From NCBI RefSeq assembly GCF_003334765.1, contig NZ_QOWT01000039.1: a stretch of DNA of 31,624 nucleotides, one strand, 5' to 3'. Shown piece after piece: positions 17,833 through 31,510 of the stretch. Both the position numbers and the translations under genes were made by a program. Below the pieces are notes generated by a model. The model was not told the DNA's origin. It did not search any database and saw nothing but the letters and a program-made list of their open reading frames with translations. Numbering within the stretch: the stretch's first letter is position 1; every line of letters begins with the position of its first letter. The stretch is from Escherichia coli. GTDB lineage: Bacteria; Pseudomonadota; Gammaproteobacteria; Enterobacterales; Enterobacteriaceae.

Positions 17833-19056
17833 ATGTCAATTGACTTTACCCCAGGTATAATAAATACATATCACGGCGATATTTATAACTGCACAACAAA
17901 TACCGATAATGCTAAAACGCCAGACACACCGAAGTGGCCTTGCGATAATTGGGAAGAACAACAACCCATTAATTCCACATTCTCTGGAGAAGGATATATC
18001 TCTGATCAATATGATTTAGCGCAACACCAACTTCAACAAATTAATGCGTGCCACACGAACACTACATATACAAATGCAGACTACTCAAAAGTTGTGGCTC
18101 AACTTGTAAGTCTTATTACTAACATTGAAACGATAAGTTCGACACAACTTACGCAACAGACACAATCAATACTTAATCAGATTAATAACATTAGATATGA
18201 AAAAAACAAAAGTGCTGAATGTCGAATCATTGTTATCGCTAATCCTAAACCCGACAAGGCAATCATAACTAAAATTAGCGTAGAAGAGGGAATACCCATA
18301 ACATTCAGTGTCCAAACCATGTTTTCAGATACTAATTTTATTGCTGAACAACGAGCTGACTTACCAACTAATATAAAAGATATTCAAAGCCTGTATCAAA
18401 AAATGACGAAGTTATATATTGAGCACAGTGAAAATAAAAACAGGATGAAAGTCTTTGCCGGAACCAACTTTATTGATTTCAATATGACAGGACAGAACCT
18501 GTCCGGGTTCGTTCTAACCTTGTCAAGGTTTTATTTCGAAGATCTACTTAATATAAATTTCACTGACGCAAATTTAGGTGACACTATTTTTTTACATAAA
18601 GAACACCCTACCCCCAAATTATATAAAGATGGACAATATCTTGACAAACAAATCGAAGGTTTATTTTCAACATTATTAACCATTAATGACAACCTTTTAC
18701 GAGCAAAAGCGGAAATTGCTTCGACAATAATTAAATTTTTAGAGGCCAGGATAACCAATCTTTCATACAATGACATATTAAAATATCAGCAAGAATTCCA
18801 AAAACAATGTTATAAGCAAGTTAAAGCCTTTACGACACTCTCCCGATACAATAAAATTCAAACATGGGCAGAAATGTCTGAATATCAATTCGAAGTATTT
18901 CAATACGAGACGCTTAACCCAAAAAAAATGTCACACACGCCTTATTTAAAGAGGCCACTGCCTAATGAAAAAGATATAAATTATGGGGTGGAAATAGAAA
19001 TACCATCTGGTAAAAGAATTCGCTTATCAAATCATTACCAGAATATAATACCATAA
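17833..19056 (+). CDS. yhiS: Uncharacterised AT-rich protein YhiS, uninterrupted 407 aa, with a pentapeptide-repeat-like central segment
   Basis: ORF 17833..19056 with AAGGAA SD. Lies between arsC and slp as yhiS does in E. coli. Markedly AT-rich, N/Q/T-rich protein. No IS sequence interrupts it here. Confidence 0.8.
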
Positions 19057-19303
19057 TATTGATTATTAGCACTTTATAATCATTGAATAAAAATAGATTT
19101 TATGTACTTTTAAAACAATGCACTATATTATGGGGTGATGGATATTCATGTCACGCCCCAAAATTAACTGAGTTCACCTAAACAGAAAGGATATAAACAT
19201 CAGACAGGTTTACGTTACTATCAGGCATATCACCTCAGAATCAGATGAAAACTATAAAGAAATATCTATTATGGTTTTAATATTTGTTGATAAGGATAGT
19301 AAC

Positions 19304-19870
19304 ATGAACATGACAAAAGGTGCACTCATCCTCAGCCTTTCATTTTTGCTTGCCGCATGTAGTTCAATTCCGCAAAATATCAAAGGCAATAACCAACCTG
19401 ATATTCAAAAAAGTTTTGTTGCTGTTCATAACCAGCCGGGGTTATATGTTGGTCAACAAGCGCGCTTTGGTGGGAAGGTTATCAACGTTATCAATGGCAA
19501 AACGGATACGTTGTTAGAAATCGCTGTATTACCGTTGGATAGCTATGCGAAGCCTGATATTGAAGCCAACTATCAGGGCCGACTGCTCGCCAGACAAAGC
19601 GGCTTCCTTGATCCAGTGAACTATCGTAATCACTTTGTTACCATCCTCGGCACCATTCAGGGTGAACAACCTGGCTTTATCAATAAAGTCCCGTATAACT
19701 TCCTGGAAGTGAATATGCAGGGCATCCAGGTGTGGCATTTGAGAGAAGTGGTTAATACCACCTATAACCTGTGGGATTACGGCTATGGTGCATTCTGGCC
19801 GGAACCGGGCTGGGGTGCGCCTTACTACACCAATGCGGTGAGTCAGGTAACACCTGAGCTGGTCAAATAA
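19304..19870 (+). CDS. slp: Outer-membrane starvation lipoprotein Slp, 188 aa
   Basis: ORF-track frame 19271..19870. ATG at 19304 with AAGGA SD gives 188 aa. Lipoprotein signal with lipobox LLAAC. Confidence 0.92.
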   Translation: MNMTKGALILSLSFLLAACSSIPQNIKGNNQPDIQKSFVAVHNQPGLYVGQQARFGGKVINVINGKTDTLLEIAVLPLDSYAKPDIEANYQGRLLARQSGFLDPVNYRNHFVTILGTIQGEQPGFINKVPYNFLEVNMQGIQVWHLREVVNTTYNLWDYGYGAFWPEPGWGAPYYTNAVSQVTPELVK

Positions 19871-20025
19871 CACCACCGAAAGATGCAGATGCTTTCTCAG
19901 CATCTGCATCATGCATTACATCAAATTAATACACAGTAAGCTAACTATTATTATTATAAGCCCTGTCCTGTTAATTACCTTTGGCAAACTGATTATAAAG
20001 TTAATGTCCGCACCAGGAGTCGGTT

Positions 20026-20556
20026 ATGTTTCTTATAATTACCAGGGATACGATGTTCTTCACCGCGATGAAAAACATTCTGAGTAAAGGTAATGTCGTT
20101 CATATACAGAACGAAGAAGAGATCGACGTAATGTTGCATCAGAATGCCTTCGTCATTATTGATACATTAATGAATAATGTATTTCATTCTAATTTTCTCA
20201 CTCAAATTGAACGATTAAAACCTGTCCATGTCATTATTTTCTCCCCCTTTAATATTAAACGCTGCCTGGGGAAAGTGCCGGTGACCTTTGTTCCGCGGAC
20301 TATCACTATCATTGATTTTGTCGCACTCATCAATGGCAGTTACTGCTCTGTGCCTGAAGCGGCTGTGTCACTTTCGCGCAAGCAACATCAGGTTCTGAGC
20401 TGCATTGCGAATCAAATGACAACGGAAGATATTCTGGAGAAACTGAAAATATCGCTAAAAACGTTCTACTGCCATAAACACAATATCATGATGATCCTCA
20501 ATCTTAAGCGGATCAATGAGCTGGTACGCCATCAGCATATTGATTATCTGGTGTGA
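20026..20556 (+). CDS. dctR: LuxR-family transcriptional regulator DctR (YhiF), 176 aa
   Basis: ORF 20026..20556 with AGGAG SD. C-terminal LuxR-type HTH region. Follows slp as in the acid fitness island. Confidence 0.9.
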   Translation: MFLIITRDTMFFTAMKNILSKGNVVHIQNEEEIDVMLHQNAFVIIDTLMNNVFHSNFLTQIERLKPVHVIIFSPFNIKRCLGKVPVTFVPRTITIIDFVALINGSYCSVPEAAVSLSRKQHQVLSCIANQMTTEDILEKLKISLKTFYCHKHNIMMILNLKRINELVRHQHIDYLV

Positions 20557-20597
20557 ATTTCAGGCTTACGGTGAGTCTGGCTACGCTGCCACACAGA

Positions 20598-29961: not shown

Positions 29962-30206
29962 GATTATCCCTTATATTTCATACTGCGATTATTTCAATTT
30001 CAGTATACTAATGAAATGATGCCAGACTGTTTCTTAGCGCAAAAACTGCCAGATTTGGTAGGACCAAAATTTATCCACAAAGTAGTTTTGCATAACAGTT
30101 AATTGATAATAAGTAAATGCAGCACGAATATATTTTCGCACAGCGTATAGCTTATGTTTATAAAAAAATGGCTGATCTTATTTCCAGTAAAAGTTATATT
30201 TAACTT

Positions 30207-30312
30207 ACTGAGAGCACAAAGTTTCCCGTGCCAACAGGGAGTGTTATAACGGTTTATTAGTCTGGAGACGGCAGACTATCCTCTTCCCGGTCCCCTATGC
30301 CGGGTTTTTTTT
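30207..30312 (+). ncRNA. gadY: GadY small RNA, cis-encoded antisense partner of the gadX 3' region
   Basis: Sequence actgagagcacaaagtttcccgtgccaacaggg ... cttcccggtcccctatgccggg plus T8 matches GadY as I recall it. Ends 17 nt before the gadX stop on the opposite strand. Confidence 0.8.
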
Positions 30313-30328
30313 ATGTCTGAGTAAAACT

Positions 30329-31153
30329 CTATAATCTTATTCCTTCCGCAGAACGGTCAGTGCCGTAAAAATTCCCTTGCGCAACAATACTTGCCGCCGA
30401 GTCACGGTTCGACAATCTCTGCGCCGATCGCTCCTGATACTCTGTGGGCGTCATCCCATAATAATTTCGAAAGACGTAAATGAAATACGACACGCTGTGA
30501 TATCCACAGGATACTGCAACTCGCTTAATTGAAAAACCATGTATAACAATAAGTTGCAAAGCACGTTGCATTCTACACTCAGTAAGCAACTGTGAATATG
30601 ATGTCTCTTCTTCGCGCAATTTTTTCTTTAACAGACTTGGACTCATCAACAGCTCGCTGGCGATTCGGGCTAGTGTCCACTCATGGGCGATATTATTATT
30701 GATAACCGTACAAACTCGTGTTCGCATGTTCGGTTGTAAAACGTTCAGAAGCAGCGGTATAAAGTGCTCATCCTCAAGAAAAACAGATAACAACGCAAAG
30801 ATTAATGCTCTTTTACGTAGCATTTCTGCATAGCGAAGATTCTTATTCTGCGATAGTTGCGCAACTTCCTGAAAAACAGGAATATCTCTACTACAGTGAT
30901 GAACGAGTAATGAAGAAACTTTTTTATGTGCATGAAGATTTAATGCCTCCTCCTTGAGCATCGGGAGAAATAATGAAAGCGTGTCCCTTGACACGAATAC
31001 AAAATTTTCAACACACTTATCTACTCGAATTTGGCTTGCATCCGCAAAAACCAGGTCACCGCCATTAAAATAGCGATATTCACCATTAACCATGGTGAGA
31101 ATATATTTATGTCTTGCATACGCAATTAGACAATTCCCATGTAGTGATTGCAT
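30329..31153 (-). CDS. gadX: AraC-family regulator GadX, 274 aa
   Basis: ORF 30329..31153. C-terminal AraC-type HTH. ATG at 31151-31153 (reverse strand). Confidence 0.94.
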   Translation of the reverse strand: MQSLHGNCLIAYARHKYILTMVNGEYRYFNGGDLVFADASQIRVDKCVENFVFVSRDTLSLFLPMLKEEALNLHAHKKVSSLLVHHCSRDIPVFQEVAQLSQNKNLRYAEMLRKRALIFALLSVFLEDEHFIPLLLNVLQPNMRTRVCTVINNNIAHEWTLARIASELLMSPSLLKKKLREEETSYSQLLTECRMQRALQLIVIHGFSIKRVAVSCGYHSVSYFIYVFRNYYGMTPTEYQERSAQRLSNRDSAASIVAQGNFYGTDRSAEGIRL

Positions 31154-31462
31154 AGTTGACTTAATATTACATAAACATATTACTGTTTATTAATGTAGCA
31201 CGCCGCCCTCTTAAGTCAAATTGATTGATAAATAAATTTAAACGAAGCGGGAGAACAGGATGATAATGTGTGATGTTCTACGGGCAGGATGACTGGATTT
31301 ATAATACAAAAACGTGTTTAAGAACGCAGGGAAATTAATAGTAAGCAAATAATCCCTTTTCGTGACATTAAAGGTAATCGCTACATTTAATAAACATTCA
31401 TATAACATATATCTTATCAACACGATGAATAGACAGCCAATATATTATTGCGATTAATAAGC

Positions 31463-31510
31463 AACCGAATGCCCAGCTGTTTTTTTAAAGGCTGGGCATT
31501 CGGTTTTTAC
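31463..31510. terminator. Inverted repeat downstream of gadA (putative terminator)
   Basis: Stem aaccgaatgcccagc / gctgggcattcggtt (15 bp) around a T-rich loop, immediately 3' of the gadA stop. Confidence 0.5.

Follow-up and report, generated by a model that had tools for sequence, protein, structure and literature searches.

The acid fitness island of Escherichia coli: a modular locus whose GC mosaic probably predates its E. coli host

Does the alternation of AT-rich and GC-normal DNA within an Escherichia coli island record separate acquisitions, or does it belong to the island itself? The question is raised by a window of 31,624 nucleotides in which a first-pass annotation recognized the acid fitness island (AFI), described AT-rich DNA with a core-like mdtEF embedded in it, and proposed at least two acquisition layers. 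From position 17000 to 31624 the window matches E. coli strain H3 at 100% identity, and 5426 of 5426 complete E. coli genomes contain matches to the region. Gene coordinates (Table 1) are those of the RefSeq annotation of the strain H3 region, with window position equal to reference-locus position minus 501.

The region is the AFI, slp to gadA, with an AT-rich yhiS tract upstream. The open reading frames follow the order slp, dctR, yhiD, hdeB, hdeA, hdeD, gadE, mdtE, mdtF, gadW, gadX, gadA; GadY lies antisense to the gadX-gadW spacer, and the island is situated between gorA/ars and ccp-treF. Gene content and order, GadY, and position all match the identification made at first pass. In E. coli the AFI is an already known island (Hommais et al. 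2004 and Tramonti et al. 2008, as cited in PMC5799925), and the studied locus, having the same genes, order, chromosomal position, and GadY, shows no essential difference from it. The left end of the AFI as defined in the literature is slp, and arsRBC is cargo of the variable gorA-ccp slot, outside the AFI proper. Extreme acid resistance, the GadE regulon, and H-NS silencing are ascribed to the island (PMC3708157; bioRxiv 10.64898/2026.02.10.705075; passages of PMC5799925), which PMC3708157 describes as a cluster that was acquired and has atypical GC. H-NS represses the gadE promoter and the gadE-mdtEF operon (PMC3708157), and its binding is widespread over the island (bioRxiv 10.64898/2026.02.10.705075).

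Table 1. Features of the acid fitness island and adjoining DNA, in window positions
Feature	Position	Strand	Basis and composition
arsRBC operon	15070-17204	+	annotation; GC-normal, 0.51-0.54
AT-rich yhiS tract	17205-19303	+	GC 0.33; intact yhiS ORF inside
yhiS	17833-19056	+	annotation, 407 aa, gene name absent there
slp, outer-membrane lipoprotein	19304-19870	+	annotation; GC 0.46, mildly low
dctR (yhiF), LuxR-type regulator	20026-20556	+	annotation; GC 0.40
dctR-yhiD spacer, 41 bp	20557-20597		chu site in other genomes
yhiD	20598-21245	-	annotation; AT-rich
hdeB, periplasmic acid chaperone	21309-21635	-	annotation; AT-rich, GC3 0.39
hdeA, periplasmic acid chaperone	21751-22083	-	annotation; AT-rich, GC3 0.36
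hdeD	22338-22910	+	annotation; GC 0.47, GC3 0.545, near-normal
hdeD-gadE regulatory region (798 bp), then gadE	22911-24236	+	GC 0.36 and 0.33
gadE	23709-24236	+	annotation; GC 0.33
gadE-mdtE spacer	24237-24574	+	composition already mdtEF-like
ES205 sRNA match	24354-24425		within gadE-mdtE spacer
mdtE	24575/24623-25732	+	annotation; GC 0.55
mdtF	25757-28870	+	annotation; GC 0.53
gadW, AraC-type regulator	29233-29961	-	annotation; GC 0.42
GadY small RNA	30204-30317	+	Rfam RF00122, 150 bits vs gathering score 45
gadX, AraC-type regulator	30329-31153	-	annotation; GC 0.41
gadA 3′ end, glutamate decarboxylase	31523-31624	-	gene truncated by window end

Entropic segmentation cuts the locus at 17228, 19318, 23006, 24263, 28804, and 31537, each GC change-point lying within 100 nt of a gene end. 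From left to right the segments have GC contents of 0.518 (1445-17227), 0.333, 0.429, 0.339, 0.533 (mdtEF), 0.398, and 0.565 (31538-32653, within gadA), i.e., AT-rich blocks of 0.33-0.43, mdtEF at 0.53, and flanking core at 0.52. Background values come from 300 kb of a single strain rather than a whole genome, sampled as six 50-kb stretches of this chromosome; their mean GC is 0.497 (0.516 in the three island-free stretches, 1-kb SD 0.036). Relative to this sample, 17205-24622 (7.4 kb, GC 0.390) falls below all windows of equal length, 28871-31522 (GC 0.398) has a lower GC than every core window and than 97% of the background windows overall, and mdtEF (GC 0.535) reaches the 85th percentile. 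Deviating base composition holds for 17228-24262 and 28804-31537, with mdtEF and gadA host-like. The most extreme intergenic regions are yhiS-slp (GC.287) and hdeD-gadE (.361); the hdeD-gadE regulatory region and gadE together make up the second most AT-rich block, between change-points 23006 and 24263. The gadW/gadX spacer is AT-rich. Just past position 31500, beyond what the first-pass annotation described, gadA is likewise GC-normal and forms a second such module (GC 0.54, GC3 0.62 for the full gene on the reference locus).

Third codon positions give a similar but uneven picture. GC3 in the AT-rich set is.30 for yhiS,.36 for hdeA,.375 for gadX,.39 for hdeB,.40 for gadE,.44 for gadW,.47 for yhiD,.48 for dctR,.49 for slp, and.545 for hdeD, compared with.556 ±.065 for core genes (Mann-Whitney p = 5.6e-6; 2.2e-5 without yhiS) and.627,.615, and.619 for mdtE, mdtF, and gadA. 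yhiS, hdeA, hdeB, gadX, and gadE lie at or under the 3rd percentile of core genes; slp, dctR, yhiD, and hdeD are only mildly low. yhiS (GC 0.338, GC3 0.299) falls under all 134 core genes sampled, and its codon-usage distance exceeds that of all length-matched core genes. Segment GC, GC3, and background windows thus agree with the earlier description of AT-rich DNA from yhiS/slp to gadX, especially in yhiS and the slp and hdeD-gadE intergenic regions, and of a core-like mdtE-mdtF. The start assigned to it, position 19000, has to be moved: AT-rich DNA sets in near 17228, right after arsC, and yhiS lies almost wholly outside the interval first drawn. The check proposed at first pass, windowed GC and GC3 with codon usage, reveals a GC/GC3 deviation from core, with yhiS and gadX as the sole codon-usage outliers.

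Could such a deviation arise without horizontal transfer, i.e., in an ancestral region whose low GC comes just from the make-up of its proteins and from selection for AT-rich regulatory DNA that binds H-NS? The AT excess of gadE and dctR sits mainly at codon positions 1 and 2 (GC1/2/3 of 36/23/40 and 45/26/48, respectively), and codon-usage distance is unremarkable in 8 of the 10 AT-rich genes. The GC-independent dinucleotide signature of the island is at most marginally foreign: the fraction of same-length core samples with a delta* at least that of the block is 0.05 for yhiS, 0.03 for slp-hdeD, 0.27 for gadE, and 0.61 for both gadWX and mdtEF, so that the gadE and gadWX blocks are not significantly foreign. 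Marks of mobility are missing as well. ARAGORN finds zero tRNA genes in the 49.6-kb locus, the strain's annotation shows no integrase, transposase, or other mobility gene from gorA to ccp, and no direct repeat brackets the slot, where just the agrA/agrB tandem repeat and short matches, probably due to chance, were found. However, the low GC3 of hdeA, hdeB, gadX, and gadE relative to the E. coli host goes beyond what protein composition explains. The GadE-like genes of Kluyvera and Yokenella have a host-like GC3 (.53-.55) and a total GC that is still low (.42-.43).

Synteny weighs against an ancestral region. Citrobacter koseri has gorA-157 bp-ccp-treF with the AFI absent from the slot, C. portucalensis has two unrelated genes between gorA and ccp, and a scaffold with a 93% GorA has about eight others; this comparison with other enterics had been suggested at first pass. 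The AFI is a true island by synteny, filling a slot that is hyper-variable and flanked by the core genes gorA and ccp, and its distribution in relatives is patchy or its location different, as in E. fergusonii. Together with the failure to find yhiS in two other Escherichia loci that cover its interval, these observations leave an origin without transfer already largely refuted, and we give it very little credence.

Within Escherichia, the parts of the locus differ in their distribution. yhiS is 80 to 100% identical among E. coli genomes, and its protein matches no NCBIfam family. The two other Escherichia loci that span gorA/ars to slp, in Escherichia sp. E1V33 and E. whittamii, yielded no yhiS and keep just the last 110-250 nt of the tract before slp. 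No part of the locus is more AT-rich or less host-like than the tract; yhiS itself, which we take to be IS-disrupted in K-12 MG1655, is intact in the studied strain. The ars operon is carried by E. whittamii but not by Escherichia sp. E1V33 (gorA-1.08 kb-slp). E. albertii and O157:H7 carry chu at the dctR-yhiD site, with chuS through a heme ABC ATP-binding gene inserted there in O157:H7 and likewise in four further loci; the studied strain lacks chu, and its spacer at this site is unrelated in sequence to the chu flanks. GadW and GadX are just 75-83% identical between Escherichia species, while neighboring genes reach 96-99%. Megablast-level copies of gadA number two per E. coli genome (median), which would be consistent with gadA plus gadB, two genes whose origin is described as uncertain in passages of PMC5799925. 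In all sampled Escherichia species, mdtEF occupies the same place.

Read literally, two layers would mean that the E. coli lineage received an AT-rich island from a donor of low GC and that mdtEF was inserted into it separately within that lineage, earlier or later. The sharp GC steps at both ends of mdtEF (24263 and 28804), the existence of Citrobacter slp-mdtEF units without most AFI genes, and the clearly separate indels of chu, yhiS, and ars in the same locus are in keeping with it. Yet the constant position of mdtEF and an mdtF-gadW junction that is unbroken in 5409 of the 5426 E. coli genomes point the other way, as does xenoGI (Bush et al. 2018), which in the relevant passages of PMC5799925 treats slp-gadA as one island gained on a single branch after E. 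fergusonii diverged. The literal reading is already disfavored, and the diverged islands described next make it improbable.

In E. fergusonii, slp to gadW are found in the same order at a different chromosomal site, next to uxuAB, with mdtEF already between gadE and gadW and gadA absent from the island. Identity to E. coli is 62% for DctR, 63% for GadW, 71% for HdeD, 78% for GadE, 83% for MdtE, and 93% for MdtF; core proteins of the two species are expected to be much closer. The same mosaic is present (gadE GC.34, mdtEF.52). The more diverged island of C. braakii, slp-gadE′-crcB-mdtE′F′-hdeD-hdeAB-amt-urease, has gadE′ (50% identity, GC.32) immediately upstream, crcB apart, of mdtE′F′ (63% and 77%, GC.47-.48). 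Because the E. fergusonii island shares order and contrast, and the C. braakii island the gadE-mdtEF linkage and the contrast, the mosaic appears to predate arrival in E. coli. What survives of the first-pass proposal is that there is more than one layer, since modules differ in phylogenetic distribution; the GC contrast does not date two separate acquisitions by E. coli, as the whole contrasted unit occurs at another site in E. fergusonii and both linkage and contrast occur in C. braakii.

A different succession is suggested by other Citrobacter loci. In six named species and two further contigs, slp, mdtE, and mdtF are directly adjacent, with just 165-250 bp between slp and mdtE in all eight loci, in at least two contexts (evgAS/yfdX/hdeDB-linked and cbpAM/ycgJ-linked) plus a short unplaced contig, and without dctR, yhiD, hdeA, gadE, gadW, gadX, or gadA. 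Identity to E. coli is 76-87% for the trio (slp 76-81% in amino acids) and only 28-70% for its Citrobacter neighbors. Nucleotide homology with E. coli extends precisely to the stop codon of slp and picks up again some 17 nt ahead of the mdtE start, and the Citrobacter slp-mdtE and AFI intergenic spacers share no homology. On this view slp-mdtE-mdtF would have been an ancestral, contiguous and operon-like unit of enterobacteria; in the forerunner of the Escherichia-type island, AT-rich dctR-yhiD-hdeBA-hdeD-gadE would have been inserted between slp and mdtE and gadWX, later gadA, added downstream; the AT-rich DNA would then be the younger layer and mdtEF the older.

The pump itself is compatible with this order of events. 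mdtEF encodes an adaptor and a 12-TM RND permease that resemble MdtEF more closely than AcrAB: identity is 71% between MdtF and AcrB and 54% between MdtE and AcrA, and the best database matches of MdtF are named MdtF, carry PF00873, and form a clade confined among those matches to Escherichia and Citrobacter. In an AcrAB-rooted tree of MdtE plus MdtF, the Citrobacter-type clade has 100% support and Escherichia 87-88%, with E. fergusonii basal. On these sequences the tree appears to follow the species tree, each genus being monophyletic, and the 87% identity of MdtF between E. coli and Citrobacter falls in the span seen for core proteins (Ccp 87-89%, TreF 91%, GorA 92-95%). Host-like composition and such a phylogeny would suit an older mdtEF. 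Nevertheless, the tree has two clades only and cannot polarize the slp-mdtEF-only and gadE-containing forms, there is no outgroup that polarizes the change, and C. braakii has a gadE-like gene between slp and mdtE. The linkage of gadE to mdtEF then goes back at least to the split of that island type (MdtF 77%), and the slp-mdtEF-only form may have arisen by secondary deletion. That form could be ancestral with later AT-rich insertion or derived by deletion; on balance, we find the ancestral unit rather doubtful.

The account that we favor as probable is that the AFI is modular and that its contrasted slp...gadE-mdtEF...gadW core was assembled before E. coli as one old maintained unit, not by two insertions. 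The AT-rich modules would comprise yhiS, the hde chaperones, the regulators dctR, gadE, gadW, and gadX, and long promoter regions, and the GC-normal ones mdtEF, whose RND pump is an enterobacterial paralogue of AcrAB, and gadA, which has gadB as its twin. These may have joined over several steps, giving more than one layer, the contrasted core having been assembled before the E. coli lineage and then inherited or moved whole. If the core was pre-assembled and moved jointly, the contrast is old and gene-specific and is not a record of two successive insertions. It would stem from protein composition (gadE, dctR) as well as persistently AT-rich synonymous sites and promoters. Going by the literature, the AT-rich stretches would be H-NS-bound control regions subject to silencing and counter-silencing, and the pump, with no comparably AT-rich region immediately upstream, would be expressed within the gadE-mdtEF operon. 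The GC of each gene is nearly constant across E. coli, E. whittamii, E. albertii, E. fergusonii, and Citrobacter. Since amelioration is slow, some such stability is to be expected of imported DNA too, and maintenance by selection can only be inferred.

Island unity, chu within the island, and a near-complete non-syntenic E. fergusonii copy without chu and gadA, as given for xenoGI in passages of PMC5799925, are reproduced here; those passages do not treat the internal GC mosaic, the Citrobacter slp-mdtEF units, the urease-linked gadE-mdtEF-hde island, or the adiA-gadE-hde-adiC clusters that our comparison also found. Like Salmonella SPI-2, described in the same source as a mosaic of differing origins, the AFI is one named island of parts unlike in distribution and composition. 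Unlike such islands, it has no secretion system, tRNA anchor, or integrase, and its compositional contrast is conserved across diverged versions. The Klebsiella pneumoniae yfdX-hdeDB-kvhAS cluster (PMC6394985) shares hdeB-like, hdeD-like, YfdX-family, and EvgAS-type parts with the neighborhood of the Citrobacter slp-mdtEF trio, but only the Citrobacter cluster has the trio attached. In E. coli, evgAS is elsewhere (yfdX-frc-oxc-yfdV-yfdE-evgSA-emrKY), with slp and mdtEF in the AFI.

A broader reading, possible though we lean slightly away from it, is that the acid islands of Enterobacteriaceae are drawn from one small, recurring kit that is reshuffled between genera: slp, a GadE-type LuxR regulator, an MdtEF-type RND pump, hdeD with hdeA/hdeB, and an AraC-type regulator, plus either one system that consumes protons or produces base (Gad, Adi, or urease) or the EvgAS/YfdX sensor, each module keeping its own GC over long spans of evolution. 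The E. coli AFI would then be one permutation among genera, and its mosaic a conserved design in which AT-rich, H-NS-controlled switches drive a GC-normal pump, rather than a scar of transfer.

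The locus is an island built of modules and occupies a variable slot; the modules are unequally distributed, and the slp … gadE-mdtEF … gadW core, together with the GC contrast inside it, is older than the E. coli lineage. A 1-kb sliding profile puts GC at 0.33-0.44 between about 17.2 and 24.3 kb; it rises to 0.51-0.54 over 24.5-29 kb and drops to 0.37-0.42 over 29-31.5 kb. Entropic segmentation places change-points at 17228, 19318, 23006, 24263, 28804, and 31537, all six within 100 nt of the arsC end, slp start, hdeD end, gadE end, mdtF end, and gadA 3′ end, and the segments following them have GC of 0.333, 0.429, 0.339, 0.533, 0.398, and 0.565. 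The null comes from six 50-kb pieces of this chromosome, their positions chosen beforehand (mean GC 0.497; 0.516 with a 1-kb SD of 0.036 for the three without obvious islands). The tract 17205-24622 (GC 0.390) is more AT-rich than every 7.4-kb background window, 28871-31522 (GC 0.398) is lower than 97% of all windows and 100% of core windows, and mdtEF (GC 0.535) lies at the 85th percentile. Windowed GC, segmentation, and background stretches thus bear out the first-pass annotation, which had described an AT-rich island with GC-normal mdtEF inside. Its left end, set at 19000, does not hold: AT-rich DNA already starts near 17228, and yhiS lies almost wholly left of 19000. A second GC-normal module, gadA, was absent from that description.

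At the gene level, GC3 is lowest in yhiS (.30), hdeA (.36), gadX (.375), hdeB (.39), gadE (.40), and gadW (.44), intermediate in yhiD (.47), dctR (.48), slp (.49), and hdeD (.545), and highest in mdtE (.63), mdtF (.62), and gadA (.62), against a core reference of.556 ±.065. Taken together, the AT-rich genes are distinct from the core genes (p = 5.6e-6; 2.2e-5 without yhiS). The low-GC deviation is uneven, being strong in yhiS, hdeAB, gadE, and gadX and mild in slp, dctR, yhiD, and hdeD. By codon-usage distance, only yhiS and gadX are outliers. The dinucleotide signature, which does not depend on GC, is no more than marginal for the yhiS (0.05) and slp-hdeD (0.03) blocks and gives no significant foreignness for the gadE and gadWX blocks. 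The AT excess of gadE (GC1/2/3 = 36/23/40) and dctR (45/26/48) falls on the first and second codon positions, and their GC3 is 13-16 points above the Muto-Osawa/Lawrence-Ochman expectation for their total GC. The AT-rich parts would be kept so partly by protein composition and partly as H-NS-bound control regions, while the normal GC of mdtEF would reflect the long residence of this AcrAB paralogue in enterobacteria. H-NS binding is wide across the acid fitness island (AFI) (bioRxiv 10.64898/2026.02.10.705075), and antagonising H-NS de-represses the gadE-mdtEF operon (PMC3708157), which implies that the AT-rich promoter region of gadE drives the pump.

The stretch 17000-31624 matches E. coli strain H3 at 100% identity, and 5,426 of 5,426 complete E. 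coli genomes contain a match to it. Gene calls follow the RefSeq annotation of H3 (window position = position in L001, the H3 locus, - 501), which agrees with the gene identifications made at first pass. Across the remaining 31.5 kb, H3 differs only at 7279 and 15756 once window positions 1-77 are set aside; these carry about 60 mismatches in an ungapped comparison, which may reflect a local rearrangement or another allele in the yhiJ/yhiL-family gene. That gene and the start of yhiM form a second AT-rich patch (1-1444, GC 0.34), separated from the island by ordinary core genes. In a 2017 paper, yhiM is connected with GABA export (PMC6604978), so that AT-rich, acid-related genes also occur 15 kb left of the island. 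An unannotated 449-aa ORF antisense to gorA (450 aa) covers nearly all of that gene and is probably a chance shadow ORF, though unusually long. In the gadE-mdtE spacer, whose GC is already mdtEF-like, the ES205 sRNA sits inside the ORF of a hypothetical protein on the opposite strand.

Features of the locus (window coordinates unless another locus is named)
Feature	Coordinates	Strand	Source or remark
yhiJ/L, yhiM, yhiN, pitA, uspB, uspA, dtpB, rsmJ, prlC, rlmJ (left flank, in order)			RefSeq
ORF antisense to gorA	12529-13878	-	unannotated
gorA	12841-14193		RefSeq; then dinQ
AgrB-family matches (two)	14605-14688, 14836-14919		Rfam
arsRBC	15070-17204		RefSeq
yhiS	17833-19056		RefSeq; unnamed 407-aa ORF in the annotation
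slp, dctR, yhiD, hdeB, hdeA, hdeD, gadE, mdtE, mdtF, gadW, gadX, gadA 3′ end (AFI, in order)			RefSeq
Hypothetical protein, 92 aa, gadE-mdtE spacer	24237-24515	-	RefSeq
ES205 sRNA	24354-24425	+	Rfam
GadY	30204-30317		Rfam
ccp, treF	past window end		RefSeq
Hybrid RND gene, 1037 aa	L036 7139-10252; L040 10001-13114; L041 727-3840		three independent metagenome assemblies

The island status proposed at first pass is upheld by comparing the neighbourhoods of GorA relatives. The E. coli slot between gorA and ccp holds dinQ/agrAB, ars, yhiS, and the AFI. C. koseri has rsmJ-prlC-rlmJ-gorA followed after 157 bp by ccp-treF; in C. portucalensis two unrelated genes separate gorA from ccp; and a scaffold with 93% GorA identity carries about eight other genes in the slot (asparaginase, DcuA, PfkB, SIS, GntR), a set that presumably resembles that of Salmonella. 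These differing contents identify the gorA-ccp junction as a variable slot, and the AFI is absent from all three of these relatives' slots. A tRNA search of the locus found none, the annotation shows no integrase or other mobility gene between gorA and ccp in this strain, and a search for direct repeats bracketing the slot found none. Within the same slot, the gorA-arsR spacer (14247-14933) contains dinQ, a type I toxin gene, together with two tandem repeats of about 114 nt, 231 nt apart, which are the Rfam AgrB-family matches (agrA and agrB antisense RNAs).

The first-pass annotation read the mosaic as at least two acquisition layers. The unequal distribution of chu, yhiS, ars, gadA, and Citrobacter slp-mdtEF supports multiple layers of modules. 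In O157:H7, E. albertii, and three other Escherichia loci (L009, L013, and L015), a chu heme locus of about 9 kb separates dctR from yhiD; in the window the gap is 41 bp, with filler unrelated to the chu flanks. Placement of chu between mdtF and gadW is ruled out, that junction being contiguous in 5409 of 5426 genomes. yhiS was not found in the loci of Escherichia sp. E1V33, which is also without ars, or E. whittamii, and yhiS-tract identity among E. coli ranges from 80 to 100%. gadA is missing from the E. fergusonii island copy; E. coli genomes contain another gene nearly identical to it (median 2 places per genome). GadW and GadX (29233-31153) are 75-83% identical between Escherichia species (loci L010-L013 and L034; in L013, GadW 90% and GadX 76%), and in E. 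fergusonii 63% and 49%; the neighbours MdtF, GadA, and HdeD are 96-99% identical between Escherichia species. This hints at recombination or very fast evolution in the gadXW region.

The GC step does not serve as a date for separate insertions, since it recurs in diverged islands. E. fergusonii keeps the order slp-dctR-yhiD-hdeB-hdeA-hdeD-gadE-mdtE-mdtF-gadW, but adjoining uxuAB, with identities of 62% (DctR), 63% (GadW), 71% (HdeD), 73% (YhiD), 78% (GadE), 83% (MdtE), 84% (Slp), and 93% (MdtF) and an E. coli-like GC pattern (gadE.34, mdtE and mdtF.52, slp.43). This island was missed by a species-wide peptide-pattern scan and recovered by protein search and contig look-up; it reproduces the non-syntenic, probably independent copy described in the xenoGI study (PMC5799925). 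In other genera, full-length GadE relatives are 43-52% identical. One C. braakii genome (CP101082.1; locus L044, 8875-20531) carries slp-gadE′-crcB-mdtE′-mdtF′-hdeD-hdeA-hdeB-amt-ureABC, primes denoting diverged relatives, with MdtF′ at 77%, HdeA at 76%, and Slp at 52% identity; crcB is a fluoride channel gene and amt encodes an Amt-family transporter. The contrast recurs there (gadE′.32 vs mdtE′F′.47-.48) within an overall island GC of 0.44; the genus GC is about 52%. By gene content, this looks like an acid-resistance island in which urease takes the central place that glutamate decarboxylase has elsewhere. Kluyvera ascorbata and Yokenella regensburgei have adiA-gadE′-hdeD-hdeA-AraC (adiY)-adiC-hdeB, in which gadE′ GC3 is host-like (.53-.55) and total GC still low (.42-.43). 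Per-gene GC is nearly constant over all Escherichia lineages, and in Citrobacter too for slp and mdtEF. These comparisons are evidence that the mosaic itself is old and moves as a unit.

One species-wide scan with MdtE as query found slp directly followed by mdtE-mdtF in six named Citrobacter species (Slp 76-81%, MdtE 74-76%, and MdtF 86-87% identical to E. coli) and the same adjacency on two more contigs. These loci have no dctR, yhiD, hdeA, gadE, gadW, gadX, or gadA. With 87% identity to MdtF vs 68% to AcrB (E. coli MdtF is 71% identical to AcrB), the Citrobacter protein is, by sequence identity, a true MdtF relative. In five species the trio is followed by hdeB-like and hdeD-like genes, a YfdX-family gene, and an EvgS/EvgA-type system. 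A regulatory link between EvgA and mdtEF (formerly yhiUV) has been reported in E. coli. The hdeB/hdeD/YfdX/EvgSA part matches a cluster described in Klebsiella (PMC6394985). Genes left of slp vary among Citrobacter species, which makes the slp side a recombination-prone boundary there; in the C. braakii type strain, the left side (6463-8313 of its locus) holds a tyrosine recombinase, an IS30 transposase fragment, and small phage-like ORFs. Other matches were set aside: loci L023-L031 (Sutterella and others) carry generic RND pumps (24-46% MdtE identity; MdtF 54-56% in L023-L027), and a 'Flavobacterium paronense' match (NZ_JAUFQN010000010.1) is almost certainly E. coli contamination, its chuU and mdtF showing 100% identity to the E. 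coli genes in the parts that match. That 8.6-kb contig holds E. coli-type chuU, yhiD, hdeB, hdeD, gadE, mdtE, and mdtF with apparent frameshifts.

The Citrobacter form with slp-mdtEF only may be ancestral, with the AT-rich block inserted later, or it may be a deletion derivative. In an AcrAB-rooted MdtE+MdtF tree, the Citrobacter-type clade has 100% and the Escherichia clade 87-88% support, E. fergusonii is basal, and the topology agrees with the species tree. The 87% MdtF identity between E. coli and Citrobacter falls among the values for core proteins of the flanks (Ccp 87-89%, TreF 91%, GorA 92-95%, YhjB 75%). Extra MdtF relatives did not polarise insertion versus deletion, because the two additional contigs fall within the Citrobacter-type clade and leave no outgroup. 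Nor could an insertion point be located through the slp-mdtE spacer: compared with the E. coli edges, homology ends at the slp stop and resumes at the mdtE start, and the spacers share none. The presence of gadE′-mdtE′F′ in the urease-type island argues that the gadE-mdtEF linkage is old. Of the MdtF matches at 83-85% identity, the three examined, at 84% (P0110, on two contigs, and P0117), do not represent another genus but are hybrids, with the N-terminal ~400 aa 55-67% identical to MdtF and the rest 100%. The nucleotide breakpoint is near 1150-1200, with narQ, aegA, nudK, and tktB, which we take to be the acrD neighbourhood, upstream and gadW-gadX-gadA downstream. The arrangement points to an acrD::mdtF junction made by recombination or to an assembly artefact, recurrent in either case; if the two loci were joined by deletion, the result should not be viable.

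The AFI is textbook material, as are its atypical GC and its silencing by H-NS. The acquired status of the AFI and its absence from other enterics are, like the island and its composition, already known (PMC3708157, PMC5799925). In the literature searched, no account treats the GC mosaic inside the island as conserved, and none describes how the modules are permuted in Citrobacter, Kluyvera, and Yokenella; as comparative findings these add modestly to what is known and make no new kind of system. Because the GC step is kept in versions at 50-80% protein identity, at other sites and in other genera, a sharp step within the island gives no dates here for separate entries into the host, which cautions against inferring acquisition layers from composition alone. 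For work on acid resistance and efflux regulation, the Citrobacter slp-mdtEF units with their evgAS-type cluster may be of use, as may the urease-linked slp-gadE-crcB-mdtEF-hde island and the adiA-gadE-hdeD-hdeA-adiY-adiC-hdeB clusters of Kluyvera and Yokenella.
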